A stretch of 32,353 bases of DNA from Acidimicrobiia bacterium (lineage in GTDB: Bacteria > Actinomycetota > Acidimicrobiia > Spongiisociales > JAHEDJ01). The notes beneath the pieces were generated by a model. It saw only the letters and a list, made by a program, of their open reading frames with translations, searched no databases and was not told where the DNA came from. Of the stretch, positions 9,210 to 27,233 are shown in pieces. The stretch's first letter is position 1. Each line of letters starts with the position of its first letter. The stretch covers positions 1 to 32,353 of the forward strand of contig JARGFH010000044.1 in NCBI GenBank assembly GCA_029210695.1, given 5' to 3'. The position numbers were made by a program, and so were the translations under genes.

Positions 9210-10415
9210 ATGCAGCGCACTCTTCTCCTCCTACTCACCACTCAGCCGTTTGTGAATCGGCGTCGAACCAGGCGATCGTGGCGGCCGAGCAGATGGGCGC
9301 TGGCCAATCCGATAGAACGGTCGGTCCAGGACACCCTTCGCTTGACTTATTTGACGGCCCGTCCGATGCGAGAGGGGCTCGATGCCCGGTCGGCCGCTCG
9401 ATCGGCCCGTGCTATCAGAGAACTCGTCGGAGTGGCGGCGGTTGCCATCACCGACGTCAAAGACGTTCTCGCCTACAGCGGCATCGGGCATCGTCATCAT
9501 GGAGTCGGAGACCTTCAGGTCTTTGAGATCGGTGAGGCGGCGATCCGGACCGGTGGATCCAGGGCGTCCAGATCGGGCCTGGTTTGTGATCGGCTCGATT
9601 GCCCGATCGGTGAAACCGTGGCCGTCCCCTTGCGGGCCGGGTCTGAGGTGATGGGTAGCCTCATTCTGCTGCGCCTGAAGGATCAGCCGGTGACCCTCGG
9701 CCTCATTCGCGCCGCCCGCGAGGTCGCCAGGCAGCTTTCAAATCAGCTCCAACTGGCGGAGGGCGACGTAACCCGCCAGGAGCTCCTGAGGGCCAGAACG
9801 GTGGCCCTTCGTGCTCAGATCAGCCCTCATTTCGCCTACAACACGCTCACCGCCATTGGAAGCATGGTGCGTAGAGATGCCGAGCGGGCCAGAGAACTAC
9901 TGATTCAGTTCGCCGAGTTCTCACGCTACATCCTGCGGAACGACCGCATCAACACGACGCTCTCGGACGAACTGCGCAACGTTCACACATACCTCGAACT
10001 TCAGCGAGCCAGGCACGGAGACCGGCTCGAGGTCGTATTCAGAGTCGATCCCGAGGTCTTGCCGATCACGATTCCGATGCTCCTGCTGCAACCCCTGGTG
10101 GAGAACGCGGTTCAACATGGTCTCGAGCGGCGTGAGGGGATCTGGCGGGTATCGATTGATGCGGAGGACCGGGACGACGACGTCTACCTGTCCGTGTCGG
10201 ACAACGGTGTCGGCATGTCCGATGAGGCGATTGCCTCGATCACGGCTTCAGTCGGCGAGCCTGGTGAAGGGTCGGTCGGTCTGGCCAACATCCAGGAGCG
10301 ACTCCGCTCGACGTATGGCGAGCATTACGGGCTACATTTCGAATCCGAGCCAGGTTCCGGCACGCGGGTCTCCATGCTCGTTCCCAAGTATCGTGCCGGG
10401 GTGATCCAACCGTGA
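9210..10415 (+). CDS. LytS/YehU-type histidine kinase (GAF, His_kinase, HATPase) without the 5TM sensor domain
   Basis: LRAQISPHFAYNTL H-box, LQPLVENAVQHG N-box, VSDNGVGM, VGLANIQERL, GTRVSM. Start uncertain (ATG 9210 or GTG 9252). Confidence 0.9.
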   Translation: MQRTLLLLLTTQPFVNRRRTRRSWRPSRWALANPIERSVQDTLRLTYLTARPMREGLDARSAARSARAIRELVGVAAVAITDVKDVLAYSGIGHRHHGVGDLQVFEIGEAAIRTGGSRASRSGLVCDRLDCPIGETVAVPLRAGSEVMGSLILLRLKDQPVTLGLIRAAREVARQLSNQLQLAEGDVTRQELLRARTVALRAQISPHFAYNTLTAIGSMVRRDAERARELLIQFAEFSRYILRNDRINTTLSDELRNVHTYLELQRARHGDRLEVVFRVDPEVLPITIPMLLLQPLVENAVQHGLERREGIWRVSIDAEDRDDDVYLSVSDNGVGMSDEAIASITASVGEPGEGSVGLANIQERLRSTYGEHYGLHFESEPGSGTRVSMLVPKYRAGVIQP

Positions 10416-11185
10416 TCTTCTCCAAGGTGCTCGTCGTCGACGACGAACAGCACGCTCGTGACGACCTGGCCTATTTGCTCGAGGCGGCAGGTGCAGCCGA
10501 AGAGATCCAGACGGCCGCCGGCGCAACCGAAGCTCTGGTCTTGCTGCAGGATGAACCTGCCGATGTCGTGTTCCTCGACATCCGGATGCCCGGCCTCGAC
10601 GGAATCCAACTCGCCAAGACGCTCGGGCAGTTCTCCGATCCGCCTGCTGTTGTGTTCGTCAGTGCCCACGAAGAGCATGCGGTGGAGGCGTTCGCGATCG
10701 ATGCAACCGATTACCTGCTCAAGCCCGTCTCAATGGAACGCCTCACGGCGACGCTTCGGCGTCTCGAGAGCCGGGTGGCAGGGAGGTCGGCCGGCGCCTC
10801 CGCGCAGGTTGGAGCAGAGCGCACAGAGGACGACGCGCTGCCCTTCGTCGCCGTCGAGGTAGCGGGCAAGACCCGTCTCATCGATCGGGGCGAGATCCGC
10901 TACGTCGAGTCCGAAGGCGACTATGTGCGCCTCCACACCTTCAAGGACTCATACCTGGTGCGCCGGTCGCTCTCGTCGCTGGCGGAACGGTGGTCCTCCG
11001 AGGGTTTTGTTCGCGTTCATCGCAGCTTCCTCGTGAATCTCCGCCACGTCATTGAGATTCAGCCGTACTTCAATCAGACCCTGATCGTGAGGCTCAACGA
11101 CTCAGGCGAGACCAAGATCCCGGTCAGTCGTCGGCGAGCAAGACAACTTCGTGAGCGCTTGGGCCTCGGTACCACGGGCCGATGA
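10412..11185 (+). CDS. LytTR-family response regulator
   Basis: Receiver VLVVDDE, VFLDIRMPGLDG, DYLLKP; LytTR domain YVESEGDYVRLHT, FVRVHRSFLVNL, IPVSRR. Confidence 0.95.
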   Translation: MIFSKVLVVDDEQHARDDLAYLLEAAGAAEEIQTAAGATEALVLLQDEPADVVFLDIRMPGLDGIQLAKTLGQFSDPPAVVFVSAHEEHAVEAFAIDATDYLLKPVSMERLTATLRRLESRVAGRSAGASAQVGAERTEDDALPFVAVEVAGKTRLIDRGEIRYVESEGDYVRLHTFKDSYLVRRSLSSLAERWSSEGFVRVHRSFLVNLRHVIEIQPYFNQTLIVRLNDSGETKIPVSRRRARQLRERLGLGTTGR

Positions 11186-11475
11186 GGGACGACCGCAACA
11201 CGGCACTCGATCCGATCTACCTTCGTACGGTTCTGAGGGTCAATTTGTCGACGTCGCTCTTCTATTTCGGGCTCTTCTTGCTCGTCATACTCGGCGGTCC
11301 GATCGTCTTCTGGCTGTTTCCATCGTTGGCGACGACCTACCTGTGGTCGCTGCCACTTCCGTGGCTGTTTCTCGGAGTCGCCGGATTCCCGATGCTGGTG
11401 CTCATCGCCTGGAGCTACCTCGGCGCAGTCGAGGAGGATGAGGACGAGTTCTCAGACCTGGTGGATACGCCGTGA
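11182..11475 (+). CDS. Small 2-TM symporter partner protein (DUF485-like)
   Basis: Two hydrophobic segments, LPWLFLGVAGFP, acidic tail EDEFSDLV; 4-bp overlaps on both sides. Confidence 0.75.
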   Translation: MRDDRNTALDPIYLRTVLRVNLSTSLFYFGLFLLVILGGPIVFWLFPSLATTYLWSLPLPWLFLGVAGFPMLVLIAWSYLGAVEEDEDEFSDLVDTP

Positions 11476-13181
11476 CATTGACGACGATCTTCGTAGGAGC
11501 GGTGATCGTCGCCACTTTCACTATCGGCCTGTTCGGCATAAGGATCGCCCGCACCACATCGGACTTCTTCGTCGCCACCCGGGCGGTCGGGTCGATCTGG
11601 AACGCTTCCGCCATCTCGGGCGAGTACCTCTCCGCGGCCTCTTTTCTCGGCATTGCCGGATTAGTCATGAAGTTCGGGGCTAGGGCGATGTGGTTTCCAC
11701 TCGGTTATGCGGCCGGGTATGTGATGTTGCTGCTCTTTGTCGCGGCACCCCTCAGGCGCTTCGGTGCCTACACGATCCCGGACTTCGCCGAGGGGCGCTT
11801 TGCCAGCCGGCGCCTCCGACGCATCGCCGCACTCCTGGTTCTCCTCATCGGGTGGTTCTACCTCGTTCCTCAGATGAAGGGCGCAGGTGTGACTCTCGAA
11901 CTCCTCGCCGGCGTGCCCTACTGGGTAGGCGTGGTCGTCGTGGGGGTCCTCGTCATTGCAGCCGTGGCATTTGGCGGGATGAAGGGCATCACCTATGTGC
12001 AGGCCTTCCATTTCTGGACCAAGCTCACTGCGATTTCATTCTCGGCTCTGGTTCTGCTGATTGCGCTCGGCTGGTCGTCCGGCGCTCGCACTCCATTTGC
12101 GGCCGGATTGCCGACTTTCCCCGATGACACAGAAGTTACCTTCGCTCGCGACACCCGGTTGGAGGTGCCGGAGTCGATCGTCGTTGCCGTCAACGGTGCG
12201 GCGGTTGTGTGGTCGGCGGGCGAAATCGAGGTGCCTGCCGGCACGAAGGCGGCGTTCGCCGCGGGTGACGTGGCTCCGACGGCGTCATCGATCGGCGCCA
12301 GGGACGGCACGGCCTGGACCGTGCCGTTCCCGGATGGTGAGCGGTACGGTCTGCTGGGCGCCGTTTCGCTCCTGATCGCCACCGTGCTCGGGACAATGGG
12401 GTTGCCACACATCCTCGTGCGGTTCTACACGAATCGCGACGCACCGTCGGCCAGGCGCACGGCAGTCGTGATCCTCGGATTTGTCGGGGTCTTCTACTTC
12501 TTCCCCTGGATCTATGGAGCGCTGGGCAGGGTGTGGGTTCCCGAGTTGTACGTGACCGGCGATACCGACACCGTGGTGCTGGCGCTGCCCCGTCTGCTCG
12601 ATGGGACCCTCGGCGAGTTCATCTCGGCGCTGGTGGCGGCCGGCGCCTTCTCCGCGTTCATCTCGACGTCATCCGGACTCCTGATCAGCGTCGCCGGGGC
12701 GTTGAGCCACGACCTCTACGCGCAACTCCTGCGCCCTGCCGCTTCGGCTGCTCGAAGGCTCTGGTACTTCAGGGCAGGGGCCGTATTCGGTGGGATCGTG
12801 GCGATCGGGCTCGGTTTGCTCGCCCGGCCGTTCGACATCAACATTCTGGTCGGATGGGCGTTCGCCATCGCCGCCAGCGCCTTCTGTCCGCTCTTGATTC
12901 TCGGCATTTGGTGGCGAGGGCTGGCCGCCCGCGGTGCCGCCCTTGGGATGATCGTTGGGGGAACCACCGCCACGGCCGCCATTCTCGTAACCATGCTTGG
13001 TGACGTCGATGGGTTGTTGGGGGCGCTACTGGCGCAGCCGGCGGTGGTGACGGTTCCTCTGGCGTTTGCCGTCATGATCCTGTTCTCCTGGCGGGCACGT
13101 CCCCCCCGTCACGCCGACCGCTTGCTGCTGAGAATGCACATGCCCGAACGTGCTTCGGAACTGCTGCGAATGGAGCTCTAA
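11472..13181 (+). CDS. ActP-like cation/acetate symporter (SLC5/SSF)
   Basis: SDFFVA, NASAISGEYLSAASFLG, YTIPDFAEGRF, GGMKGITYVQ, GTMGLPHILVRFYT, AFAIAASAFCP. Confidence 0.92.
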   Translation: MTLTTIFVGAVIVATFTIGLFGIRIARTTSDFFVATRAVGSIWNASAISGEYLSAASFLGIAGLVMKFGARAMWFPLGYAAGYVMLLLFVAAPLRRFGAYTIPDFAEGRFASRRLRRIAALLVLLIGWFYLVPQMKGAGVTLELLAGVPYWVGVVVVGVLVIAAVAFGGMKGITYVQAFHFWTKLTAISFSALVLLIALGWSSGARTPFAAGLPTFPDDTEVTFARDTRLEVPESIVVAVNGAAVVWSAGEIEVPAGTKAAFAAGDVAPTASSIGARDGTAWTVPFPDGERYGLLGAVSLLIATVLGTMGLPHILVRFYTNRDAPSARRTAVVILGFVGVFYFFPWIYGALGRVWVPELYVTGDTDTVVLALPRLLDGTLGEFISALVAAGAFSAFISTSSGLLISVAGALSHDLYAQLLRPAASAARRLWYFRAGAVFGGIVAIGLGLLARPFDINILVGWAFAIAASAFCPLLILGIWWRGLAARGAALGMIVGGTTATAAILVTMLGDVDGLLGALLAQPAVVTVPLAFAVMILFSWRARPPRHADRLLLRMHMPERASELLRMEL

Positions 13182-13297
13182 TAGCGCTGTCAAAGGGGGC
13201 GGCACCAGACGAAGCGACGGGTGAATTTCCGTCGAACCCATGAGCCAGAACTGAACGGCAGAACAGTTCTTCGTTGCACTCGCTTGGCTGCGCCGAG

Positions 13298-13398
13298 CGG
13301 TCCGTTCATCCGATGACCGGTCTGTTCGCCGCCGATTGACGCAGCAAAGCGCCGCTCAACGCATTCCCCCGCCGCGAAGAGAGATGGCGTCGTACCTT
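13298..13398 (+). promoter_or_regulatory. Putative LytTR-activated promoter of the DUF4212-symporter operon
   Basis: Direct repeats GCCGATTGACGCA (13331) and GCCGCTCAACGCA (13351); a further pair CGGTCCGTTC/CGGTCTGTTC (13298, 13318); -10-like TACCTT at 13393. Confidence 0.5.
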
Positions 13399-13458
13399 CC
13401 TCGTGACGAGCCCCCGGGTGCCCCAGGGGCACCCATGCATGGAAGGGAGGTCGAAGCG

Positions 13459-13734
13459 GTGGATCAAGCCATAAAGGACTACTGGCGACGGAACGTACGC
13501 CTCAAACTCATCTTGTTGTCGATCTGGGCGTTTGTCTCGATCGTCTTGTCGATTCTCTTGATCGATGTTCTCAACGAGGCATCAATCGGAGGATTTCCAC
13601 TCGGATTCTGGATGGCGCAGCAGGGATCGATCTTTGTGTTTGTTGTTCTCATCTTCGTATATGCGAAGACTATGGATCGCTACGACACGGAGCTTGAAGC
13701 AACGCTGCAGGGAATGTCGGGAGGTAGCGCATGA
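13459..13734 (+). CDS. DUF4212 small symporter subunit
   Basis: YWRRNVRL and GGFPLGFWMAQQGSIFVFVVLIFVYA motifs; GTG 13459 follows SD GGGAGG. Confidence 0.9.
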   Translation: MDQAIKDYWRRNVRLKLILLSIWAFVSIVLSILLIDVLNEASIGGFPLGFWMAQQGSIFVFVVLIFVYAKTMDRYDTELEATLQGMSGGSA

Positions 13735-15410
13735 GCGTCGAAGTCTGGACGTGGATCGTTGTCGGCCTGACCTTCGCGCTCTACATCTATATCGCTCTGC
13801 GACAGCGGGCGAGGGATACCGAGGGCTTCTACGTGGCAGGCCACGGAGTTCCCGCGGTCGCCAACGGCATGGCCGTTGCCGCCGACTGGATGTCGGCTGC
13901 ATCGTTCATTTCGATGGCAGGCATCATCGCCTTCCTCGGTTCGGACGGTTCCGTCTACCTCATGGGTTGGACGGGCGGCTATGTGCTGCTGGCGCTGCTG
14001 CTGGCACCGTATCTGCGTAAGTTCGGCAAGTACACCGTTCCCGACTTCGTCGGCGATCGCTACTACAGCCAAACTGCCCGCATTGTCGCACTGGTGGCGG
14101 CGATCTTCGTTTCGTTCACCTACGTGGCCGGCCAGATGCGCGGCGTCGGGATCGTGTTCTCGCGGTTCCTGAACCTCGATATCAACGTCGGTGTGTTCGT
14201 TGGCATGGCGATCGTCACGGTCTATGCCGTCACCGGCGGCATGAAGGGCATCACCTGGACTCAGGTAGCGCAGTATTCGGTGCTGATCATCGCCTACTTG
14301 ATTCCGGCCATTGCCATCGCCTCGAAGCTGACGGGAATGCCGATCCCTCAGCTTGGCTTCGGCGGCGTGCTCGACGATCTGAACGCGATCCAGACGGATC
14401 TCGGATTCGGAGCGTATACGGAAGCCTTTTCGTCACTTTCGACGTTGAACGTCCTGTTCATCACGATTGCGCTCATGACGGGTACGGCCGGGTTGCCACA
14501 CGTGATCGTGCGGTTCTATACGACGAAGACGGTGCGGGATGCCCGCTGGTCGGCTGGATGGGCTTTGTTCTTCATCGCCATCCTCTATACGACGGCTCCG
14601 GCAGTTGCGGCCTTCGCCAAGACGAACCTGATGGACACGGTGTCGAACCAGCCGTACGAGCAGGTCAAGGCTGAGAACTCCTGGTTCGGCTCATGGGAGG
14701 AAACCGGTCTGCTCAGCTTCGATGACAAGAACGGCGACGGGATCATCAACTACCAGGCAGGCGACGGCAACGAACTGACCGTCGACCGCGACATCATGGT
14801 GCTCGCCAACCCGGAGATCGCGGGTCTCGCCGCCCCGATCACTGCGCTTGTGGCGGCAGGCGGCCTGGCCGCTGCACTATCGACGGCGTCCGGTCTTCTT
14901 CTGGTGATTGGATCTTCGATCGGGCACGACCTCTATACGAAGGTGTTGAAACGAGGCACCAATGAGGCTCAGCGGCTGCGTGCCGGTCGGATCGCGATGG
15001 GCGGCGGCGTGCTGGTTGCCGGCTACTTCGGGATCAACCCGCCCGGGTTCGTTGCGGAGGTGGTGGCATTCGCCTTCGGCCTTGCCGCGGCGAGTTTCTT
15101 CCCGGTCATCGTGTTGGGGATCTTCTGGAAGAAGGCCACGAAGGAGGGCGCGATTGCCGGGATGGCCATCGGCATGACGTTCACCTTCGTGTACATCGTG
15201 ATGACGGCCAACGGTCTGATGGACATCGATCCCTGGCTCTTCGACATCTCGCCGCAGGGCATCGGGACGGTCGGTATGGTCCTCAACCTGGTCACCACCT
15301 ACGTTGTCTCGAAGATGACGAAGGAACCGCCCGCCGAGGTCCAGGAACTCGTCGAGAGTCTCCGGATCCCCGAGGTGGCCAGCGCCTACCTCAAGGAGGG
15401 CAAGGCCTAG
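13731..15410 (+). CDS. actP: Sodium:solute symporter, ActP-like VC_2705 subfamily (probable acetate permease)
   Basis: NGMAVAADWMSAASFISMAG, YLMGWTGGYVLLALLLAPYLRKFGKYTVPDF, GTAGLPHVIVRFYT, DKNGDG loop, DRDIMVLANPEIA; DUF4212 partner. The symbol is a family-level assignment. Confidence 0.92.
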   Translation: MSVEVWTWIVVGLTFALYIYIALRQRARDTEGFYVAGHGVPAVANGMAVAADWMSAASFISMAGIIAFLGSDGSVYLMGWTGGYVLLALLLAPYLRKFGKYTVPDFVGDRYYSQTARIVALVAAIFVSFTYVAGQMRGVGIVFSRFLNLDINVGVFVGMAIVTVYAVTGGMKGITWTQVAQYSVLIIAYLIPAIAIASKLTGMPIPQLGFGGVLDDLNAIQTDLGFGAYTEAFSSLSTLNVLFITIALMTGTAGLPHVIVRFYTTKTVRDARWSAGWALFFIAILYTTAPAVAAFAKTNLMDTVSNQPYEQVKAENSWFGSWEETGLLSFDDKNGDGIINYQAGDGNELTVDRDIMVLANPEIAGLAAPITALVAAGGLAAALSTASGLLLVIGSSIGHDLYTKVLKRGTNEAQRLRAGRIAMGGGVLVAGYFGINPPGFVAEVVAFAFGLAAASFFPVIVLGIFWKKATKEGAIAGMAIGMTFTFVYIVMTANGLMDIDPWLFDISPQGIGTVGMVLNLVTTYVVSKMTKEPPAEVQELVESLRIPEVASAYLKEGKA

Positions 15411-15431
15411 AGCACTCCGGGCCTGAACAGG

Positions 15432-15463
15432 AAAGCGGGGAAGTTGGTGCTTCCCCGCTTTTC
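15432..15463 (+). terminator. Intrinsic terminator
   Basis: Stem AAAGCGGGGAAG / CTTCCCCGCTTT with a 6-nt loop, ending in TTTT, about 20 bp after the stop codon. Confidence 0.85.
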
Positions 15464-15466
15464 TGT

Positions 15467-15564
15467 GTCGCGGGTCGCGGGTCGCGGGTCGCGGGTCGCG
15501 GGTCGCGGGTCGCGGGTCGCGGGTCGCGGGTCGCGGGTCGCTGGTCGCGGGTCGCGGGTCGCGT
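15467..15564. repeat. Near-perfect heptamer tandem repeat (GTCGCGG) x14
   Basis: 12 perfect units, one GTCGCTG variant and a terminal GTCGCGT. Confidence 0.95.
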
Positions 15565-15617
15565 GAAGCCCACATCTGCGGGCTCTGCCGGGCGAGTGCC
15601 CACTAACCTGCGTTTCG

Positions 15618-17384
15618 ATGCAACACGCAATCTTTCGGTTCCTATCCGAGATGACCGCGTTCGCCGGCGTTCGCCCGGCGGATATCGATGACTTGATCGA
15701 GGACATAACCGAAGCGGCTGCTGTCGGAGGCGAGGTCGTCACTCCACCAGGTCCCGTCGCCGTGATGTTCGGCGGGCTGCGGATCAGTGATCAGGAGGGC
15801 CGCAGCGTCGATGTCGTGGGCGCCGGCGAATTCTGGGTGCCGAGCCCGGGCCACACCGCCACGGCATCTTCCGCAACCACGTACCTTCTGCTCCCGGATC
15901 GGGCAATCGACCTGGCGTGGGAGGGCGAGGCAGGTCGGGCAGTTCTGGCCGGGCGGCAACGGACCGCCGGCGACGACCTTCGACTCACCTCGCGCCTGGT
16001 CTCCGACGTGATGGCCGCACCTCTCGTGGTCGGCGGGCACCTCGCGGCGCAGGCGGTGGCCGAGGCCATGACCCTGGAGGGGGCCACCGCAGCACTCGTC
16101 ACGGTTGGGGACCGTCTCGGAATCGTCACAGATCAGGACTTCAGGGCCAGGATGGTGGCGATCGGTCGGGACTCCTCCGGCCCCGTTCGTGACATCGCCA
16201 CCTTCCCGGTTACGACCATCGAATCCGGCGATCGTCTCCTGACGGCCCTGGAAGTGATGGTCGACCAGGGAATCAAGCACCTTCCCGTTCTGTTCGACGG
16301 TCGTCCGGTCGGCATGCTGGCCGATAGCGATCTATTCGGGACGATCGACGAGAGTCCATTCGCCATTCGCAGCGCGATTCGCAGCGCTCGGACCCCGGGC
16401 GCACTCGCCGAGGTCTATGCATCGATGCCCAGAATCGTTGAGCGGCTGCTGTCGCAGGGCATGGAAGGTATGGCCATCTCACGGCTGCTGGCCAACTTCG
16501 CAGAAGCCGCCACCGCCCGGGCCATAGAGTGGGCGACGGCTGAGCTCGGTCCCGCCCCCGGCTCCTACGCCTGGGTTGCCTTCGGGAGCCTCGCCCGGCG
16601 TGAACTCGCACTGCTTCCCGACCAGGATCACGCCCTCGTCGTGCCAAACGGGCTGGGCTCCAATCCCTGGTTTGATGGGATGGCCTCTCACGTGACCAGG
16701 GTTCTCGAGGAGGTCGGATACCCGCGCTGCAGTGGGGCGGTGATGGCCTCAGAACCGGATTGGCGCGGCGAGGAAGGCGAGTGGGAGCGGCGGTGGATTG
16801 CCTATCTGCTCGATGCCAGCCCGGTCCATCTTCTCGAATCGCAGATCGTCTTCGACTCGAGGGTCATCGCCGGAGATGCGACCCTGGCCGGTTCGTTCGC
16901 GGAGTTGCGTACGCGAGCCAGGAACGCAGGTCCCTTCCTCGCCTTGCTCGCCAAGCGGGCGGCCGACTTCCGTCCCCCGCTCGGGTTCATGGGGCGGATG
17001 CAGACCGAGCGGGGCGGCGACCACGCAGGAACGTTTGACCTCAAGGCGGGAGCGATCCTCCCGATTGTTCAGTTCGCCCGGATTCATGCCCTCGTCATCG
17101 ATGCTCCGATGGTCGGCACGATCGGCCGCCTGGAAGCGGCTGCGGCGGCGGGCGAGGTATCGGACGAGTTGTCCTCAATGCTCATCGAGGGTTACGAGCT
17201 TGCAACCACGATTCGTCTCGAACACCAGGTGGCACGCTGGCGGTTGGGCGAATCGCCAGACAACCGCATCAACCCCGACGAGTTGACGAGCTGGCGGCGA
17301 ATGGGCCTGCGGGAAGTGTTCAAGGCGATCAAGTCCGCCCAGGAGGCTCTGGCGCTCAACTTCTCGTCGGGGCTTGTGTCATGA
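15618..17384 (+). CDS. Degenerate cNMP-like / CBS pair / DUF294 nucleotidyltransferase / DUF294_C protein
   Basis: CBS motifs LGIVTDQDFR and GIKHLPVL; pol-beta NTase motif FGSLARRELALLPDQDHAL; GYPRCSGAVMASEPDW; C-terminal FDLKAGAILPIVQFARIHAL. Confidence 0.9.
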   Translation: MQHAIFRFLSEMTAFAGVRPADIDDLIEDITEAAAVGGEVVTPPGPVAVMFGGLRISDQEGRSVDVVGAGEFWVPSPGHTATASSATTYLLLPDRAIDLAWEGEAGRAVLAGRQRTAGDDLRLTSRLVSDVMAAPLVVGGHLAAQAVAEAMTLEGATAALVTVGDRLGIVTDQDFRARMVAIGRDSSGPVRDIATFPVTTIESGDRLLTALEVMVDQGIKHLPVLFDGRPVGMLADSDLFGTIDESPFAIRSAIRSARTPGALAEVYASMPRIVERLLSQGMEGMAISRLLANFAEAATARAIEWATAELGPAPGSYAWVAFGSLARRELALLPDQDHALVVPNGLGSNPWFDGMASHVTRVLEEVGYPRCSGAVMASEPDWRGEEGEWERRWIAYLLDASPVHLLESQIVFDSRVIAGDATLAGSFAELRTRARNAGPFLALLAKRAADFRPPLGFMGRMQTERGGDHAGTFDLKAGAILPIVQFARIHALVIDAPMVGTIGRLEAAAAAGEVSDELSSMLIEGYELATTIRLEHQVARWRLGESPDNRINPDELTSWRRMGLREVFKAIKSAQEALALNFSSGLVS

Positions 17385-17450
17385 TCATCGGTTGACGGCT
17401 GTGATGTGGCTCGCCCGGCGGCCATGTCTGCGACGGAGAGGAGGACGACG

Positions 17451-17639
17451 ATGGATCGTCGCGGTCAACGCCTGGCCGCGGTTTCCGTGTTCGGCGCGCT
17501 CGCCCTCAACTATCCACTGATGACGCTGGCGTCCTCGGATGGCACGTTGCTCGGAGTTCCGGTGCTCTACCTGTACTTGTTTGTTTGGTGGGCTGTGCTC
17601 ATCGGGGTCATGGCCTTCGTCATCGAGCGAAGGCGCTGA
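17451..17639 (+). CDS. Small 2-TM protein preceding the SLC5-kinase (CbrX-like position)
   Basis: Strong SD GGAGAGGAGGA; QRLAAVSVFGALALNYPL and GVPVLYLYLFVWWAVLI; stops 3 nt before the kinase start. Confidence 0.8.
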   Translation: MDRRGQRLAAVSVFGALALNYPLMTLASSDGTLLGVPVLYLYLFVWWAVLIGVMAFVIERRR

Positions 17640-17642
17640 GCG

Positions 17643-20429
17643 GTGTTCGGTTGGGTCATTGTTGGCTCGGCGCTCGCCTACATCGGCTTGCTGTTCTTGA
17701 TCGCCCGCTATGCAGATCGCCGCGCCGAGCGCGGTCACAGCCTCATCGCCAACCCGTACGTCTACTCGCTATCGCTCGCCGTCTACTGCACCGCCTGGAC
17801 GTTCTACGGCAGTGTTGGAAGGGCGGCCTCCGCCGGCATCGGTTTTCTTCCGATCTACCTCGGGCCAACCTTGATGGCGGGGCTCTGGTGGGTCGTTCTT
17901 CGCAAAATAATCCGGATCAGCAAGCAGAACTCGATCACGTCGATTGCCGACTTCATCTCGTCTCGATACGGGAAAGGACTAGCGCTCGGCGTGATCGTCA
18001 CCGGCATCGCCGCGGTGGGCATCGTGCCCTACGTTGCACTCCAACTCGACGGAATCGCTACCAGTTTTGCGTTGCTCTGGCACTACCCGGACGTCACGTC
18101 GAGTGCTGTTGGTTTCACCGACCTCTTCGGAGGGACCGCTTTCTGGGTGGCGCTTCTGCTGGGGACGTTTGCAATCCTCTTTGGGACCAGGCACCTGGAT
18201 GTCACCGAGCACCATGAGGGTCTCGTAGCTGCTATTGCATTTGAGTCCGTCGTCAAGTTGTTTGCCTTCCTCGCCGTTGGGGTGTTTGTCACCTGGGGGC
18301 TGTTTTCGGGACCGGGCGATATCTTTACGAGAGCGGCTGCCGATACCGATATCTCTTCCTTGCTCCGATTCGAAGGCGGGGTCGAGGAGTACTGGGACTG
18401 GGGATGGCTGATGGTGTTGTCTGCACTGGCCATCATGTTCCTGCCGCGGCAGTTCCAGATGGCTGTGGTCGAAAACACCGATGAGAGCCATCTGAACAAG
18501 GCGATCTGGCTGTTCCCTCTCTACCTGTTCGTTATGAACCTCTTCGTTCTTCCGATCGCCGTCGGCGGGCGCCTCACGTTCGAGGCGGGATCGGTGGACC
18601 CGGACAACCTCGTGCTGCTGCTTCCCATGGCCGACGGTCAGCGACTGCTTGCCCTTGTGGCGTTCATCGGCGGCTTGTCTGCCGCCGCCTCCATGGTCAT
18701 CGTGGCCACTGTTGCTCTCTCCACCATGGTCTCCAACGATGTGGTGATTCCGGTGCTGCTCAGAGTTCGCTCCTTCCGCCTGGCCGAGCGTGGGGACGTT
18801 TCTTCGCTCGTGCTGGGCACCAGGCGGATCACCATCCTTTCGGTCGTTCTCCTCGGATATTTCTACTTCCGGCTGACCGAAGGAGCTCTGCCCCTGGTTT
18901 CGATCGGGCTGATCTCGTTCGCGGCAATCGCGCAACTTGCTCCTTCGATGCTGGGTGGGCTCTACTGGAAGCCCGGCAATCGCCGAGGCGCCATTGCGGG
19001 GATGGTTGCCGGATTCACGGTCTGGGCTTACACGCTCGCCATCCCAACCCTCGTCGAGAGCGGGCTCATGTCCGACGCCTTCATCGAGTCCGGGCCGTTC
19101 GGGATCGAGGCTCTCCGGCCGTTTGCCCTGCTCGGTCTGGAGGGGTTCGATCCGATCACCAACGGATTGTTCTGGAGTCTGTTGATCAACGCCGGCCTAT
19201 TCATGGTGGTGTCAATACTCACGGACCAGACACCGATAGAGCAGCGACAGGCTTCGATCTTCGTGGACGTGTTCAAGGGAGCCAGCGAACGAACCCAGGC
19301 ATCGGTATGGCAGGGCACCGCCTCGTTCGTCGAGTTGCGGTCGATTCTCGAACGAGTGCTGGGCTCGCAAAGGGCAGACGCGCTTCTGATGCGGTATGCG
19401 GCCACGCGGGGCATCGCCGAGTCCGGCGACCTGGAGGCCGACGCGGATTTGGTCACGTTCGTCGAACAAAGACTCGCCGGGGCAGTCGGGGCAGTCTCCG
19501 CCCGAGCGCTGGTTTCATCTGCTGTGGAAGAGGCCGTCCTCAGCCGCGACGAGGTCCTCGATGTGCTGGATGAAACGACCCGCGTCCTCGCCTACAGCCG
19601 GCAACTCGAGCAGCAACAGCGCGAACTGGAACAAGCGACTGAGGAGTTACAGAACGCCAACCTGCAACTTCTCGAGCTCGATCGGATGAAGGATGACTTC
19701 ATGTCGGCTGTGACGCATGAGCTCCGTACCCCGCTGACATCGATTCGCGCATTCACCGAGATACTGGATGACAACCCCGACCTCGATCATGATCAGCGCA
19801 GCCAGTTCCTCGACATCATCCTCAAAGAGAGCGAGCGGCTGACCCGCCACATAAACCAGGTCCTCGATTTCGCCAAAATCGAGTCGGGTACGCTCGAGTG
19901 GAAGATAGAGCTGCAGCCGCTGGGGCCGGTGGTCGAGGAGTCGCTGCAGCGTGTGGGCGAACTGCTCCGCCGACGGCACATAGACATGAGCATCGACCTG
20001 GGCCCGTCGGACCTGCAGGCGGAGTTCGACCACGATCGACTCATTCAAGTGATCATCAATCTGGTCTCCAACGCGGTGAAGTTCAGCGACCCGGACGAAC
20101 CGAGGGTGTGGGTGACCCTCCAGCAAGTTGACGGAGAGGCGCGGGTAACGGTCGCAGACAACGGCCCGGGGGTGCCGCCTGAACACCACGAGCTGATCTT
20201 CGAGAAGTTCCAGCAAGTCGCAGATGGGGACTCGGGCAAGCCGCGCGGTACCGGGCTCGGACTGCCAATCTCGAAGGAGATCATCACGCAACTGGGGGGT
20301 CGCCTCTGGATTGAAACCGCTCCAGGACCCGGCGCAGTGTTCTGTTTTGCTCTACCGTTGGCGGCCAGTCCGCCGGCTGACGATCCGGGAGGAGGTGAGG
20401 CAGTTGAACGCACGGATACTGATCGTTGA
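17643..20429 (+). CDS. CrbS/CbrA-like SLC5-STAC-fused sensor histidine kinase
   Basis: [47 protein letters not shown]-like [15 protein letters not shown]-box [32 protein letters not shown]. No PAS or receiver domain visible. Confidence 0.93.
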
Positions 20430-20775
20430 CGATGAGCCGAATATCGTCATCTCGCTCGAGTTCCTAATGCGACACGAGGGCTATGAAGTCGAGGTTGCCT
20501 CCGATGGGGAAGAAGCGCTCGAGCTCCTTGCCTCGTTTCAGCCGGATCTCGTCTTGCTCGACGTCATGATGCCGAAGTTGTCGGGTTTTGACGTTCTGCA
20601 GCGCATCCGAAACGACGCCGATCTTCCGAACCCGGTGGTGGTCATGTTGACTGCCAGGGGTCGGGAGGCCGAGGCAGAAAAAGGAAGGGCGCTCGGAGCG
20701 GACGAGTACGTCACGAAGCCATTCGCGACTCGAGACCTCGTTGCCGTCGTACACCGGGCCCTCGAAGGTCGATGA
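20404..20775 (+). CDS. Single-domain response regulator (receiver only)
   Basis: [44 protein letters not shown] 20404 follows SD GGAGGTGAGG and overlaps the kinase end. Confidence 0.9.
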
Positions 20776-22865
20776 GAGGCCGCCGTTTCGAATCGACTGT
20801 GGCCGGCGTCGGCGCGGTCGCCACGGCCGTCGGCTATGTCGCTGCGTTGTGGATTGTCTGGGCGGGACTCGACGAAGCAGGTCGTGAGGGCTTCGGCGAG
20901 GTGCTCAATCTCCTGGTGCCTATCGGCCTGGCACTGGTGGCACTCGCCGGTGTCGTGGCCGGTCGGTTCTTTCGTTCGTTCATGGTGGCGACGCGCCGGA
21001 TGGCCGACGAAGTTGACCTCATCGCCACAGTCAATCCGGCCCACCGCATCGACCCGGGCGGTCCGACCCATCTGCGCAAGCTGGGGTGGTCCATCAATCG
21101 TCTGGCCGGGCGACTGTGGGAGAGCCTCGAGGATCAGGAGGCGGCGGTCGAGGCAGGCAGGAAAGCGGTCGGACATGAGAAGGAACGCCTGGCGGCGCTG
21201 ATGTCCGACCTCGCGCAGGGTGTCATCGTCTGCAACCTCGATGGACAGATCCTGCTCTATAACGGCGAAGCCCGGAACCTCCTGGCCGGCGAGGACGCGA
21301 ACTATGTCGGCCTGGGGAGGTCGGTTTTCGCGTTTCTCGATCGCAATGTCGTTCTCAATGCTCTGCATCATCTGCAACTGCGAGCCGAACGTGGTGCCAA
21401 AGTGCGTCCCCAACGCTTCGTCGCCACGATCCCTTCCGGCTTCGTCCTCCGCATGACCATGGTCGCCGTTCGCGATACTGCGGGGAGTTTCACGGGGTTT
21501 GTGCTGACACTGGAAGATGTGACGCACGAGCGAGCGGCCCGCGGCCGGCGCGATCAACTGCTTCGTTCCCTCACGCACGAGGCTCGTCAATCCGTCGCTG
21601 GAATCCGGGCGGCGATCGAGACCATCCTCTCGTATCCGGAGATGTCCGGCGGTGACATCGAGCGGTTCCGATCGGTGATCGCCGAGGAGGCCGAGCGGCT
21701 ATCGGCTCGGATCGACGACGTATCGGCCCAACACGCGGCAACACTCGAGTCGGCCTGGGAACTCGACGACATGCTCGGCGACGACCTTCTGCTGGCGCTG
21801 GCGAACCGGGTGGAGAGTTCCACGGGATTCCACGTGTCGACGGACGTCCGAGAGGATTCACTCTGGGTGAAGGTCGACGGTCTCGCCCTGATCGACCGAT
21901 TGGCCGCGGTGGCAGTCCACATGGCGGAACAGGTCGGGGCGGGCTCGATGGCCATCCGGATGCAGGAGGTAGGTCAGTTCGCCGCCCTCGACGTCGAATG
22001 GCCGGAGGCCGGAATCACTGAGTCCATGGTGGCTGCTTGCATGAAGGAGTCTTCGGTCGGCGAAAAAGATCTCGAATCTCTCGTCGCGTTGCACGGGGGC
22101 GAAGTCTGGTGCGAAACGGGGTCTGATGGGAATCCGTTCTTGCGAGTGCTTCTGCCGAAGGCCGTCGCAGTTCCGGCGCTGGCACTGCGGGTGCTCGATG
22201 AGGGTCGTCCGGAGTTCTACGACTTCGATCTATTCGAACAGCGGGAGACGGCATCCAGCCTCGACGATCGGCACCTGCGCGATCTGGTGTTCACCGTGTT
22301 CGACACCGAGACGACGGGACTCGATCCCAGCGGGGGAGACGAGATCATCTCGATTGGTGCCGTTCGGATCCTCAACGGGAAACTGCTCCGATACGAGGCA
22401 TTCGATCAGCTCGTCGATCCCCGTCGGTCCATTCCGGCCGAGTCGTACCAGATCCACAGAATCGACGCGGAGATGCTCGCCGGGCAGCCCACCATCGATG
22501 TCGTGCTTCCCCGCTTCGCCCGGTTCGTCGAGGATACGATTCTCGTCGGTCATAACGTCGCCTTTGATCTGAAGTTTCTTCAACTGAAGGAGGATTCCAC
22601 GGGGGTAACCCTCTCCAATCCGGTCCTTGACACCCTGCTGCTCGCCGCCGTCGTCTACCCGGAGTCGGATGTGCACAGTCTCGAGGCCCTCGCCCGACTG
22701 GTGGGAGTGCCGGTAACCGGACGGCATACCTCGCTGGGCGACGCACTGGTCACCGCAGAGTTGTTCCTGCAGCTCATCCCTCTGCTCGAGGCACGCGGCT
22801 TGCGCACGTTCGCGCAGGTGCAGAGAGCAGAGAAAGAGACGTTCTATTCTCGACTGGAATACTGA
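20772..22865 (+). CDS. Membrane-anchored HAMP/PAS/pseudokinase protein fused to a DEDDh 3'-5' exonuclease (DnaQ-like)
   Basis: Two N-terminal TMs; PAS-like [18 protein letters not shown] and FVLTLEDVT; DHp-like [17 protein letters not shown]; Exo[10 protein letters not shown], ExoII GHNVAFD, Exo[11 protein letters not shown]. Confidence 0.9.
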
Positions 22866-22878
22866 CGTTCGTAGGCTA

Positions 22879-22922
22879 CCTATTGCCTGTTGCCTGTTGC
22901 CTATTGCCTATTGCCTGTTGCC
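22879..22922. repeat. Heptamer tandem repeat (CCTRTTG) x6 between convergent genes
   Basis: cctattg cctgttg cctgttg cctattg cctattg cctgttg. Confidence 0.9.
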
Positions 22923-22925
22923 CGG

Positions 22926-25900
22926 CTAGCTGTGGACGATGCCCGCTTCGGCGATGAGTCGGCGCAGTTCCGGCTCGAGCAAGGTCAGCTCGGCCTGCAA
23001 ACTCGGCCACGCACTCGTCGCCCCTGCGAGGTCGCCGGCTTTGGCGATGTCGTTTAGATGGCGGGCGGCGCCAAAGGTGCCTGTAGCCCCGAGCAGCCCC
23101 GAGCTGCCCTTGATCCGGTGTGATGCCCCGGCGATAGCCGTCAGGTCGTTCCGGTCGAATCCTTCAGCGATCGCTTCCGAGAGCATCTTCGCTTCCTCCA
23201 GGAAGAGCTCGGCCATTTCAGCCAGCACGTCGAGCATTCCTTCGACCCGGGCCAATCCGTCTTCGCGGTCGAACACGACAGGACGGGGTTGCTCGGGCGC
23301 TGCCTCCGCCGGTGCACCGGAGACGCTTCCGTGTGGAACCATCTGCTCCAGAACGGCGAAGAGCTCCTCGGCTCGGAATGGTTTTGCCAGAAATCCGTCC
23401 ATTCCGGCTTCGAGGCAACGGTCGCGATCGGAGTCCATCGCGTGAGCGGTGAGAGCGATTATGGGCAGATGGTGGTCGGCGGCCTCGTTGGTGCGGATAA
23501 CCGCGGTTGCTTCCAGGCCATCCATTCCCGGCATCTGGACATCCATCAAGACTGCGTCGAAGCTCCCATCGGCGACCGCCCGAACGGCCTCGTATCCATT
23601 CTCGACTGCTACCGCGACGTGACCGCGCTTCTCCAGGAGCCGCAGCGCCAGACGCCGGTTGGTCGGGCTGTCGTCGGCAACGAGGACCCGCATCCTGGTT
23701 CTTCGTTCTCGAATCCAATGCCGCGTGACGAGGAGATCGGGACGGGAGGGGCCGGAGAGGACTCGAACAATCTCGAGTAGCTCGGATGAGCTGATCGGTT
23801 TGGCAAGGTAGCCAGATGCGCCGGCCGAACGGTATTCGCTAGCTTCGCCGCGTTGACCGGATGTCGGACAAACAACAACGGGTATGCCGTTGAAGGCCCC
23901 ATGTCCAGACACCCGGGAGGCCATTCCGAGGGTGTCTTGTTCGTGCTCGATGATGATCACATCCGGTCGACGACGGAGTCGCTCGATCTTCGTCATGACT
24001 TCGACCGCATCCGGGAGGCCCATCGCCCCGACGGACGACACCCCTCCCTGGCGGAGCATCTCTGTCAGGTTGCGCTGGGCGGCGGCGGAGTCGGTGATCA
24101 GCAGAGCATGAACATTGCCGGACGCTTCGGGACCGAGGGATTGCAGCAAGACTGCCTCGTCATCAGCCACGCCGAGTGAGGCTGTGAAATGAAAGGCGCT
24201 TCCAGAGCCGAGGGCGCTCTCCACCCAGATGCGACCGCCCATCTTCTCGACCAGTTCGGCAGTGATAGTCAGCCCGAGCCCCGTCCCTCCGAACCGGCGG
24301 GTGGTTGAACCGTCTGCCTGGGCGAATGCCTCAAAGATCTTCTCCTGCTTGTCGGCAGGGATTCCCACCCCGGTGTCTGCAACGGAGACATGGAGGTCGA
24401 TGTTGGAGTCGGTGAGCGCGGTGGCGTTGACAAACACGCTGATCCCACCGACATTGGTGAACTTCACCGAGTTGCCTACCAGATTGAACAGAATCTGACG
24501 GATCCGCCCGGGGTCTCCAACGACGGCGTCCGGTATGTTGGGGTCCAGTTGGTAGTTGAGAGCGAGGCCTTTGGCTGCGGCCCGCACGGCGATCGTCCGA
24601 ATGGTGTCTCCGACGGTCTCGGCGAGGCTGAAGGGGATGGCCTCCAGTTCGAGTTTACCTGCCTCGATCTTCGACACGTCGAGCAGATCGTTCACCAACG
24701 TCAAGAGGCTGTCGACCGACAACTTGACAGTTCCGAGGTACTCGCGCTGTTCCCCGGTCAAATCCGTCGCAAGTGCCAGTTCCGTCATCCCCTGAATAGC
24801 GTTCATCGGAGTCCGGATCTCATGGCTGACGTTGGCAAGGAATTGCGACTTGGCGTCTGTTGCCCTCTCCGCCGTCTCCTTCGCTTCCCGCAAGGCAGAC
24901 TCGGCGGCAACCCGCCTTTGCTCCGTCCTGATCGCATCCGTTAGGCCGGCGATCGTCGCGATGAACGGTTCGACCTGCTCGGCCAATTCTTGCGAGTACC
25001 CACCTGGACGATTGGCGATGGCGATGACCCCGACCACCGAGCCCGCTTGCCGGAAGGGAACGATCATTATCGAGTCGAGGTCATCGGCGTTGCCCGGATA
25101 AAGGGGAAGATCTTCGCGGGTGGGACGAGAGGCGATCACGGTTTCCTGGGTTCCCAGCGCCAGCCCGATCAGCCCCCCTGACGAAGCCGTTGTGCAGTCG
25201 GTCGCGTCGTTCTGCCACCCGGCGCCGCGGGCAGCGCGAACCAGTAGGTGGGATTCGTCGTCCACGGGAAGCATCTCCGCAATGAGGCCCCAGTTGCTGT
25301 TCGTCAGCCGGAGGAGGTCGTCGAGTAGGGATTCGAACTGATCAACCCGGCTTCCACTCGTGCGAATGAAGCGAAGCTGTGCGTTGGCGACGCTGTCGAG
25401 GAGTTCGTTTTTGGCGGCGAGATCTCGCTGCGTGTTTCTCAATCTGGAGACGTCGACGATGGAAACGAGGACCCGCCCGAGGTCGAGGCCGCCCTTGCCG
25501 TCGGGAGGCGCCTCCCAATGCATCACACAGTCGAACGGGTTTCCTTTCAATGTTGTGCCCGAGAAGTCGATGACGAGATGATCCTGTCTCGCCCAGATGG
25601 CAACGAGTTGCTGGAGGAACGACCTCCTGGCATCTTCGTCGACCGTCTCCGCATTGATCGATCCGAGCAGGTCCTCGGGGCCGTCGGCCTCCAAGAGAGC
25701 AACTGCGGCTTCGTTGACATCGATCACACGGATGGCGGCAAGAGCCTGGTCGAATACGTCGGGATTGTCGATCAGATGGCTGCGAAGGTCGACGACCCCA
25801 TCGGTCCGCAAACGATCGAGGATCGCGGCGGCGCCGCGGTAATCCTCCTGCCAGATCGACGTTGGAGCGCGGGCGAAGAGCGCCTGATAGCCGAGCTCAC

Positions 25901-26468
25901 TGTTCTGGACCGCGGTGGCGATCCGATGGAGAGCGCCGGCGATGACCACGAAGACCGCCACTTCGAGAGCCATGGTGAACAGGTGTGTCTGCCGGGCACC
26001 GGCAAAGACCCCCGATCCCTGGTCTGCCGCCCACAGGACCTGGAGAGCCCAGATGGTCCCCAGATAACCGAGGTAGATGACCAGCCGTCGGCCGCGGACG
26101 AACAGACTTCCGACCGCACCGAAGGCCGCCACACCCACGAGGAGGGGGCTCCAGCGCTCGGCTGGTTGAACGGGCATCTCGACGGCAGCCAGGGTTGCCA
26201 CAACGAGAATCAGTTGCGCAGCATTCACACTGCCTCGGTGCAACTGGAGAAACGCGAACCCGCCGGTTACGAGCGAGAGGGATGCCAGGAAGGCTATACC
26301 CGCGTCGGAAAAGGCGGCGGCGGCGATCAGGAGGGGTATGCCGAGGAGAACCCCGCCCCACTGAAGGCCGCGAACGACGGCACCTTCGATGGCGGCGGAC
26401 GTGCTTTCTACAACGTCGCGTTGCGAGACGGGTGCGATCTCCGCCCGGGTTCCCAGTGGCACAGCCAT
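22926..26468 (-). CDS. Hybrid sensor histidine kinase (TM, PAS, GAF, HisKA, HATPase, two receivers, Hpt)
   Basis: [51 protein letters not shown]; receiver [23 protein letters not shown]; Hpt SHRIKGSS. Confidence 0.95.
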
Positions 26469-26475
26469 AGTTGAC

Positions 26476-26502
26476 TTGTCGGCCGCGATCCGGCGGTCTT
26501 GA
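26476..26502 (-). promoter_or_regulatory. Putative sigma-28 (FliA/WhiG) promoter, leaderless
   Basis: Minus strand TCAA-N15-GCCGACAA, with the ATG 7 nt downstream; consensus is TAAA-N15-GCCGATAA. Confidence 0.6.
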
Positions 26503-26601
26503 CGACTTATCGATCACCGCCCCGGAGGCACGAAAGCCGGCTGAACGACCAAAGGGCGGTCCCGGTCACGTTGCACAACGAGACGTTGAGCTGGTCGAGG
26601 C

Positions 26602-27027
26602 CTACTGCCGGGTGCTCAGCAACTCCCGGCCACCGAGGAAGACGGTGTTGAGCGCACCCGCTCCGGTGATTATGAGTCCGAAGGCCGGCTGGCACAGGGT
26701 GCCTTCATCGAGGGTGCACTCGGAGGTGCCGGTCACCATCAGCCAGATAACCAACCCGAGCGCAACAGCTCCACCGAGTGCCGGCAAGAACCGGTAGAGC
26801 GTATGGCGGGTTGAGAACACCCCTGCCAGGCCAACAGCCGCTGCCCATAGCGAGATCATCCCCCAGTTGTCGAGGCCGTACACCGGACCGGCCACAGTGT
26901 TCCACCAGCGCAGCATGCTGCCGATCAGCACGACGAGAAGGCTCACGAGCAGCCAGATCTGCGTAGGTCCGAACCAGGGGAAACCTGGGCGGCGACGGGG
27001 CACTTTGGTGGACGGGGTTTCCGACAT
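26602..27027 (-). CDS. Hypothetical 4-TM membrane protein
   Basis: ATG-initiated 141-aa ORF with four hydrophobic segments ([19 protein letters not shown]) and a Cys pair in a loop. Confidence 0.7.
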
Positions 27028-27076
27028 GCGCCCATCCTCACGCGCGAAACGGGGTTCGGCAAACCGTTTGCGTCGA

Positions 27077-27165
27077 GTGGTTCAGCACCCGCTGCGGACC
27101 GCTCACCGCCCATATCGACCGGTCGGCGGCACTCCGTGGTGTAAGAGGTGGTGCTTCCGTAGCAT
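27077..27165 (+). promoter_or_regulatory. Putative LytTR-activated acs promoter
   Basis: ACCGCTCA (27098) and ACCGGTCG (27118), a weaker GTGGTTCA (27077), and -10-like TAGCAT at 27160. Confidence 0.5.
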
Positions 27166-27233
27166 GTCATTTGTCAGGGCGTGTCCCTCGAATTGTGATG
27201 TGCCCGCGTCGCGGGCGGCAGGAAGGAGCTTTT

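Follow-up and report, generated by a model that had tools for sequence, protein, structure and literature searches.

We have examined a 32,353-nucleotide (nt) stretch of DNA from an Acidimicrobiia bacterium (GenBank assembly GCA_029210695.1, contig JARGFH010000044.1; hereafter the window), which has a G+C content of ~62%. Positions 15618-22865 of its forward strand hold five co-oriented genes, some of them overlapping and with nearly no intergenic DNA, for a DUF294 nucleotidyltransferase (NTase), a small membrane peptide, an SLC5-type histidine kinase, a receiver-only response regulator and a membrane-anchored sensor exonuclease. A preliminary description made from the sequence had drawn attention to this tight, co-oriented arrangement, which we confirm, and we refer to the five genes as the cassette:

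15618..17384, forward strand: CBS/DUF294 NTase, 588 amino acids (aa), with a barrel read as a degenerate cyclic nucleotide (cNMP)-like domain, a CBS pair, DUF294 and a DUF294_C helical domain (Pfam, AlphaFold2, Foldseek)
17406..17639, forward strand: two-helix membrane peptide, 77 aa, CbrX-like by position and shape only (open reading frame, hydrophobic helices)
17643..20429, forward strand: SLC5-type transceptor histidine kinase, 928 aa, with HisKA and HATPase_c (Pfam, match to PDB 10ED)
20404..20775, forward strand: receiver-only response regulator, 123 aa (Response_reg, 1.4e-30)
20772..22865, forward strand: membrane-anchored sensor exonuclease, 697 aa (Pfam, AlphaFold2, Foldseek, alignments, PDB sequence matches)

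The NTase gene ends 21 nt before the peptide gene (17384 to 17406), and a further 3 nt separate the peptide gene from the kinase gene. The 3' end of the kinase gene overlaps the start of the receiver gene by 26 nt, and the receiver stop codon overlaps the ATG of the exonuclease gene (ATGA). The receiver probably starts at a TTG at 20404, after the Shine-Dalgarno-like GGGAGGAGG at 20387-20395. As first described, none of the five proteins has a DNA-binding domain according to Pfam and NCBIfam; a LytTR regulator gene (10412-11185) lies 4.4 kb 5' of the cassette.

Nucleotidyltransferase, peptide, kinase and receiver

The NTase belongs to the DUF294 family as that family is defined, with both Pfam domains above cut-off (DUF294, PF03445, 6.3e-35, 120.5 bits; DUF294_C, PF10335, 4.8e-41, 140.4 bits) and a pol-beta GS...DxD motif; Pfam also finds CBS (4.9e-10). 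An alignment of 22 relatives shows no variation at nine residues (G323, S324, R327, E329, D335, Q336, D337, D413 and K476). Because these include the GS...DQD signature (G323 S324 / D335 Q336 D337) and D413, the pol-beta active site is intact. The AlphaFold2 model, with a predicted local distance difference test (pLDDT) score of 85.4, shows an extra N-terminal beta-barrel at residues ~30-91 (15618-15992 region) to which Pfam assigns no name. Two homologous NTases from other loci (L002 and L010) carry a true cNMP_binding domain at the barrel position (4.5e-7 and 4.2e-12). We read the barrel in the window as a degenerate cNMP-like domain, and cyclic-nucleotide sensing may have been lost from the NTase in this lineage.

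Structural comparison with Foldseek placed the NTase closest, CBS matches aside, to the AMPylation domain of DrrA (2.7e-8, template-modelling score 0.68 on the target) and the two halves of GlnE (6e-8 and 7e-7), bearing out an earlier suggestion that it is related to GlnE. The likeness is one of fold, with no Pfam match to the GlnE/GlnD family and a PRK14109 score of 15.1 bits against a 625-bit cut-off. The C-terminal domain of DUF294 proteins has been placed in the GlnD/GlnE/KNTase_C helical class (PMC3710099). Judged from the model, this fold class would favour transfer of a nucleoside monophosphate (NMP) to a hydroxyl of a protein or small molecule. A search for the DUF294 catalytic half within longer proteins (1030-2940 aa) gave no fused form at E<=0.001, which is weak evidence. 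Literature matches to 'DUF294' that in fact name DUF2946 were set aside as unrelated.

One explanation of the NTase and exonuclease together is that the NTase synthesizes a small linear nucleotide or oligonucleotide as a signal, which the exonuclease breaks down. The nucleotide-sensing domains of the NTase (cNMP-like and CBS) would suit this role, and DEDDh enzymes such as Orn clear dinucleotides. However, known signal-making NTases are absent from the Foldseek matches listed, and we find this explanation barely credible.

The 77-aa protein consists of two hydrophobic helices and has a weak DUF3311 match (E=0.042). Compared by sequence with PDB chains, CbrX included, it gave only chance-level matches to bacteriorhodopsin (E>=0.4). 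The kinase downstream of it had been called SLC5-fused, and this is upheld by a phmmer match of residues 11-470 to PDB 10ED, the SLC5-STAC structure of CbrA (E=1.2e-65), though Pfam SSF is silent over the first 652 aa at a threshold as loose as E<=10. An N-terminal SLC5 membrane domain is the mark of the SLC5/STAC transceptor kinases CbrA, CrbS and RpuS. Residues 471-680, where a STAC linker would be expected, have no Pfam match at E<=10, and the 10ED match ends at residue 470. The catalytic core is that of an ordinary histidine kinase (HisKA 9.4e-20, HATPase_c 2.8e-30, H-box THELRTPL), with no receiver or PAS domain by Pfam. The receiver itself has the canonical residues D9, D10, D53 and K105, which do not vary among 28 relatives, and its orthologues measure 117-129 aa in 62 of 62 cases extracted.

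The sensor exonuclease and its kinase-like scaffold

The last protein of the cassette joins a sensor-like scaffold to an exonuclease. Pfam assigns it a PAS domain, a weak HisKA match (4.4e-05, under the cut-off) and RNase_T (2.9e-33). In the AlphaFold2 model (pLDDT 72), a transmembrane hairpin and long signalling helices lead into the PAS domain (150-249) and a DHp-like hairpin (254-325) that contains H269. These are followed by an alpha/beta ATPase-like domain (332-464), a disordered linker (467-495) and the DEDDh exonuclease (506-697). Foldseek matches the N-terminal part to whole sensor kinases (WalK, VicK, LOV-kinases and HK853).

The exonuclease domain is recognizable by both structure and sequence. 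Its Foldseek matches are the PolC, DinG, epsilon, Cas2-DnaQ and ExoX exonucleases (root-mean-square deviation 1.7-2.3 A), and among PDB sequences it matches the Thermotoga maritima PolC exonuclease (2p1j, 1e-30) and Escherichia coli epsilon (8.6e-15). Residue counts were made on 119 of the 120 full-length relatives of at least 600 aa, and the five DEDDh residues of Exo I, II and III (D511, E513, D599, H652 and D657) are present in all 119. Thus, the domain assignments and intact motifs first reported for both enzymes hold, with GS/DQD invariant in the 22 NTase relatives.

The scaffold resembles the pseudokinase DivL in that it pairs a DHp domain with an ATPase-like fold that lacks ATP-binding motifs: Pfam finds no HATPase_c in the protein, and inspection of the alignment reveals no N, G1 or G2 motif in the ATPase-like domain. 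The earlier pseudokinase call is sound to this extent. The other DivL-type trait, replacement of the phospho-acceptor histidine, is found in the exonuclease family and not in the window copy. At the H-box position the 119 sequences carry E (81), Q (17), A (12), H (7), R (1) and S (1), and the seven bearing histidine comprise the window protein and the six sequences closest to it (76-95% identity). Residue H269 of the window protein (21576-21578) aligns exactly with the phospho-acceptor histidine of the cassette kinase, and its presence corrects the preliminary description.

These counts also bear on the phosphorelay that the preliminary description had proposed. Because 112 of the 119 relatives lack the histidine, the exonuclease family as a whole cannot depend on phosphorylation at the H-box, and a phosphorelay is doubtful for the family. 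The window genus keeps the histidine, and a His-Asp-His step in which H269 accepts the receiver's phosphoryl group might operate there.

The exonuclease DHp aligns with the DHp of the cassette kinase (29% identity over 78 residues, E=2e-8), and gave no alignment with that of the neighbouring hybrid kinase. Complex prediction for exonuclease residues 245-470 with the receiver (1:1) gave scores of 0.09 and 0.08 against a mark of 0.32, and we count this result neither way.

Conservation of the cassette and its surroundings

Searches with the exonuclease protein returned 736 matches at E<=1e-3 among 7999 scored candidates, including full-length relatives (~700 aa) that share 40-47% identity with it. 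A scan of one genome per species gave at least 769 pattern matches, of which at least 765 encode an exonuclease relative. Synteny was scored by tblastn with the window proteins (E<=1e-5, with coverage filters) on the best 80 of these at least 765, kept as 79 loci. By record title they come from Acidimicrobiia, Thermoleophilia, Chloroflexota, many Betaproteobacteria, Thiothrix, Pseudomonas, Xanthobacter and Desulfobacterales, and so span Actinomycetota, Chloroflexota, Alpha-, Beta- and Gammaproteobacteria and Desulfobacterales.

Gene order is strongly conserved in this sample. In 62 of the 69 loci with at least 500 nt of upstream sequence the receiver gene comes directly before the exonuclease gene, and the two often overlap. 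Of the 60 loci that extend 3.4 kb or more upstream, 48 have both SLC5 kinase and receiver, and 40 of the 48 loci with a kinase and enough upstream DNA have a counterpart of the small peptide by tblastn. DUF294 is present in 53 of 79 loci overall and in 34 of the 45 whose flanks reach 5.5 kb or more upstream and 2.5 kb or more downstream. Co-occurrence across genomes had been set beforehand as a test of the cassette, and these frequencies for receiver, kinase and DUF294 pass it.

The position of DUF294 is more variable. Copies 3' of the exonuclease gene number 39, of which 35 lie within 700 nt (of the 39, 21 share the strand of the exonuclease gene and 18 do not). The 14 copies on the 5' side mostly lie ~3.4 kb away, where, as in the window, they immediately precede the peptide and kinase genes. 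In three genomes checked further, two have the cassette without a nearby DUF294, and DUF294 genes occur elsewhere in the genomes. A short DnaQ-like exonuclease lies directly downstream in four of five such extra DUF294 loci (L092-L095, not L096). Cupriavidus necator A5-1 carries a second complete cassette (L097), its other long sensor-exonuclease gene (L074) being without kinase and receiver. Two long sensor-exonuclease copies (2087-4200 and 10001-12178) occur within one 22-kb locus (L022).

Within its own order the exonuclease protein is patchy: among 40 relatives searched at E<=1e-30, it was found in four of six other genomes of the window genus, but the 34 genomes from 11 other families gave no match. 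After these, the closest relatives (44-47% identity) belong to Chloroflexota and Proteobacteria, and the distribution is compatible with horizontal gain. Both the restriction of the exonuclease protein to the window genus among these 40 relatives and the Acidimicrobiia-type copy that keeps the H-box histidine are new here.

The cassette is flanked by further sensory genes and by genes for symporters and acyl-CoA synthetases:

9141-11185, forward strand: LytS-like kinase (GAF, His_kinase) and LytTR regulator
11182..13181, forward strand: small protein (97 aa, no family) and ActP/MctC-like SSF symporter (Pfam SSF 1.1e-53)
13336-13734, forward strand: DUF4212 small subunit (TIGR03647, 100.7 bits)
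13731-15410, forward strand: VC_2705-family sodium/solute symporter (TIGR03648, 810.7 bits)
22926-26468, reverse strand: hybrid kinase, 1180 aa, with GAF, HisKA, HATPase_c, two receivers and Hpt
27171-29195, forward strand: acetyl-CoA synthetase (NF001208, 1011.8 bits)
29228-31120, forward strand: PrpE-like acyl-CoA synthetase (NF007815, 776.9 bits, under the 955-bit cut-off)
30957-32315, forward strand: DUF222-family open reading frame (1.3e-13)

The first symporter is named by likeness, its NCBIfam ActP and MctC matches falling under their cut-offs. Together with the LytS-like kinase, the LytTR regulator and the 97-aa protein (9141-13181) it forms a second sensory unit upstream of the cassette, which may control a monocarboxylate importer through a transcriptional circuit of its own. 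The DUF222 reading frame as listed starts within the 3' end of the PrpE-like gene, and its real start is probably later. Among the 79 loci, the VC_2705-type (SSF2-like) symporter occurs in 46, DUF4212 in 21 and acetyl-CoA synthetase (Acs) in 16. The hybrid kinase gene sits between the exonuclease gene and acs; in the closest related locus (L001), acs directly follows the exonuclease gene. A simple scan of 13000-27300 found no promoter-like sites, and in the same region 8 terminator-like sites against 8.3 expected from shuffles leave that scan uninformative. No RNA element was found across the window at Rfam gathering thresholds.

The presence of two other signalling systems, the LytS/LytTR pair and the Hpt hybrid kinase, invites the explanation that the receiver signals mainly to a transcription factor elsewhere or through the hybrid kinase, the exonuclease and NTase being merely co-expressed in a carboxylate regulon. 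A precedent is the short NTase/exonuclease pair of Pseudomonas, a transcriptional target of CrbS/CrbR that is not directly wired to it (PMC9927547; PMC5715377). However, the position of the receiver immediately 5' of the exonuclease gene in 62 of 69 loci across phyla speaks against mere co-expression, a search of the 79 loci for the hybrid kinase gave no match covering more than 40% of the query, and the kinase-like docking module modelled in the exonuclease protein would have no other obvious use. We consider this explanation very improbable.

A candidate pathway and its relation to known systems

The NTase/exonuclease pair has a published history in its short form. In Pseudomonas putida, PP_0354 (cNMP-CBS-NTase) and PP_0353 (RNase_T family) form an operon under MxtR/ErdR that is bound directly by ErdR. 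Deletion of either gene was without effect on growth on acetate, deletion of the exonuclease gene delayed growth on pyruvate, and in Pseudomonas aeruginosa the pair adjoins actP/yjcH (PMC9927547). A preprint (10.64898/2026.09.07.749794) reports that growth of P. putida on propionate is reduced by deletion of the exonuclease or the NTase gene, and growth on pyruvate impaired by deletion of the exonuclease gene, yjcH or actP-I. Additionally, PA3232-PA3235 are upregulated ~16-fold on propionate (PMC9765439). On function, Henriquez et al. speculate that PP_0353 degrades messenger RNA (mRNA; PMC9927547), the preprint that PP_0354 modifies a protein and PP_0353 has an RNase T-like role, and Sepulveda and Lupas suggested nucleotidylation for Pflu5625 (PMC5715377). 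The literature thus already contains the pair, its connection to an SLC5 kinase and the idea of modification, as well as the recurrence of DUF294 and exonuclease genes near actP/acs (PMC9927547) that the preliminary description had mentioned. A literature search, with subscription journals and supplements outside its reach, found no account of the long sensor-exonuclease, its receiver-only partner or a writer/eraser pairing. A two-component system of Cupriavidus basilensis described in a preprint is a different system and was set aside.

From the observed gene structure, domain content, intact catalytic residues and conserved synteny, we infer a series of transfer and binding steps and a kind of substrate. 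The hairpin peptide would bind the kinase at its SLC5 domain, in the way that CbrX binds CbrA (PMC13022988). Binding or transport of a substrate by the SLC5 domain would set autophosphorylation of the kinase, which would pass the phosphoryl group to the bare receiver. The phosphorylation state of the receiver would then be read by the DHp/ATPase-like dead-kinase module of the exonuclease protein, much as the Caulobacter pseudokinase DivL reads the single-domain regulator DivK (PMC5361649). If so, the output of the pathway would be 3'-5' exonuclease activity at the membrane and not transcription.

This wiring from kinase to receiver to exonuclease protein we regard as probable. The genes are taken as one pathway because the order peptide-kinase-receiver-exonuclease is tight and conserved and because the docking module resembles the cassette's own kinase. 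For the five genes together, we lean somewhat towards a single conserved signalling cassette for short-chain carboxylates, with an exonuclease output and the NTase as partner.

The part played by the NTase is more tentative. With its GlnE/DrrA-like fold, and gated by its cNMP-like and CBS nucleotide-binding domains, it would be the functional partner of the exonuclease in both long and short forms. Most likely both enzymes would act on one substrate, by which the uptake or activation of carboxylates is tuned, the NTase attaching a nucleotidyl group that the exonuclease takes off again. That an add/remove cycle operates in any form is possible, and we propose it with some reserve. Removal of the NTase product by the exonuclease fits the P. 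putida data, because growth on pyruvate suffers in the exonuclease mutant and not in the NTase mutant.

In one form of such a cycle the substrate is a protein. The NTase would NMPylate an uptake or activation protein (a symporter, the small subunit, Acs or PrpE) and the DEDDh domain, under kinase control, would hydrolyse the protein-O-P-nucleoside bond. The closest folds to the NTase are indeed the protein AMPylators DrrA and GlnE, and its C-terminal domain is of the GlnD/GlnE/KNTase_C class (PMC3710099). On pyruvate, P. putida without the exonuclease resembles the actP-I and yjcH deletion strains and the NTase deletion is silent (preprint 10.64898/2026.09.07.749794), the pattern to be expected if the exonuclease is the eraser and the NTase the writer. 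The chemistry appears feasible, a tyrosine-AMP bond being a phosphodiester whose hydrolysis would yield a 5'-NMP. However, the closest relatives of the exonuclease domain (PolC, epsilon, DinG and Cas2-DnaQ) act on nucleic acids, and both deletions lower growth on propionate. We also know of no DEDDh enzyme that removes NMP from proteins. NMPylation of an uptake or activation protein is unlikely in our judgement, and we hold a protein to be an equally unlikely candidate for the modified substrate. The most specific version, in which a transporter-kinase sets a DnaQ-fold de-NMPylase through receiver docking on a dead-kinase scaffold and so controls a reversible nucleotidyl tag on a carboxylate uptake or activation protein, we consider distinctly unlikely.

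The main rival is control of RNA ends. Here the exonuclease would trim or degrade RNA 3' ends at the membrane, whether of transporter or acs mRNAs or of a small RNA, and the NTase would tail RNA ends or switch the nuclease by NMPylating it. Precedents exist in MntA/HepT, in the CCA-adding enzyme with RNase T and in PAPD5/PARN. By its sequence the domain appears to be a bona fide DEDDh nucleic-acid exonuclease, and degradation of mRNA has been the published speculation for PP_0353 (PMC9927547). An exonuclease gene nearly always lies behind DUF294, and the long exonuclease also occurs without a nearby DUF294, which fits the nuclease as effector. Against this, the NTase has protein AMPylators as its structural neighbours, the Foldseek matches listed include no enzyme of the CCA-adding, poly(A) polymerase or TUTase type, and the Rfam search of the window was negative. 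We judge control of RNA ends to be somewhat unlikely.

Several observations weigh against the cassette pathway as we have drawn it. The first concerns the use of P. putida data. In a tree of 24 RNase_T-family domains from four genomes (the short form L094, under the 1e-8 threshold, was excluded), the five long-form exonuclease domains form one clade with support of 99/99, and the three short DUF294-adjacent exonucleases sit on long branches in a polytomy and do not group with them. Thus, the P. putida phenotypes carry over to the cassette through shared neighbours only. The harm done by both deletions on propionate is unlike what simple antagonism predicts, and the resemblance of the exonuclease domain to DNA-proofreading exonucleases gives no pointer to a protein-linked substrate. 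Retention of H269 makes phosphotransfer to the exonuclease protein, in place of mere docking, possible in the window, and the adjoining Hpt hybrid kinase (22926-26468, reverse strand) could feed the receiver too. Finally, the synteny sample is of best-scoring loci and is not random. Within it the receiver is missing from seven of the 69 loci (L011, L021, L026, L041, L042, L074 and L075) and a nearby DUF294 from 11 of the 45 well-flanked ones. On balance, the observations of the preliminary description are confirmed, and its interpretation, a phosphorelay-controlled nucleotidylation writer and eraser, is partly supported.

Two-component systems are usually read as a kinase acting on a transcription factor. 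The cassette, which is widespread and has relatives in at least 765 species-level genomes, instead places an exonuclease behind the receiver. If that exonuclease removed a nucleotidyl tag from a protein, it would be the first de-NMPylase of the DnaQ fold, and the pathway would end in post-translational, not transcriptional, control. The cassette also gives a direct way into the unexplained DUF294/exonuclease pair. Its substrate would tell tuning of short-chain fatty-acid uptake by a nucleotidyl tag from control of RNA ends at the membrane, and either outcome would add a new regulatory layer to acetate and propionate metabolism.

Among known systems, CrbS/CrbR (MxtR/ErdR) of Vibrio and Pseudomonas shares with the cassette an SLC5-type kinase tied to the use of acetate, propionate and pyruvate. 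Its target PP_0354/PP_0353 (PA3233/PA3232; Pflu5625) likewise combines a cNMP/CBS/DUF294 NTase and an RNase_T-family exonuclease near actP/acs-type genes. However, CrbS is of the hybrid type and its partner CrbR is an activator that binds DNA, whereas the cassette kinase is without a receiver domain and its regulator is receiver-only. The cassette thus lacks the hybrid kinase with DNA-binding partner that defines a CrbS/CrbR system. The Pseudomonas pair is under transcriptional control and has a short exonuclease, whereas the cassette places an exonuclease with a transmembrane-PAS-DHp-dead ATPase architecture directly behind the receiver gene. CbrX-CbrA/CbrB (10ED) resembles the window in having a small two-helix peptide gene directly 5' of an SLC5 kinase gene. 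It differs in that CbrA senses histidine and signals to the sigma-54 activator CbrB; in the window kinase, Pfam detects neither a PAS nor a STAC domain.

DivL-DivK provides the closest parallel to the scaffold, a DHp/ATPase-like module without kinase chemistry alongside a stand-alone receiver. By analogy, the encoding of such a module with a stand-alone receiver suggests reverse signalling, from receiver to sensor scaffold. DivL has no fused enzyme and controls CckA, whereas the cassette scaffold carries an exonuclease and the window copy keeps its histidine. GlnE and DrrA (SidM) share with the NTase a pol-beta core, a helical domain and the GS...DxD motif, at 13-14% identity and with regulatory domains different from its cNMP-like and CBS domains. 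The DnaQ/PolC proofreading exonucleases have the same five catalytic residues as the window exonuclease which, unlike them, is no part of a polymerase but is tethered to the membrane and to a sensor, and is genetically linked to carboxylate metabolism.

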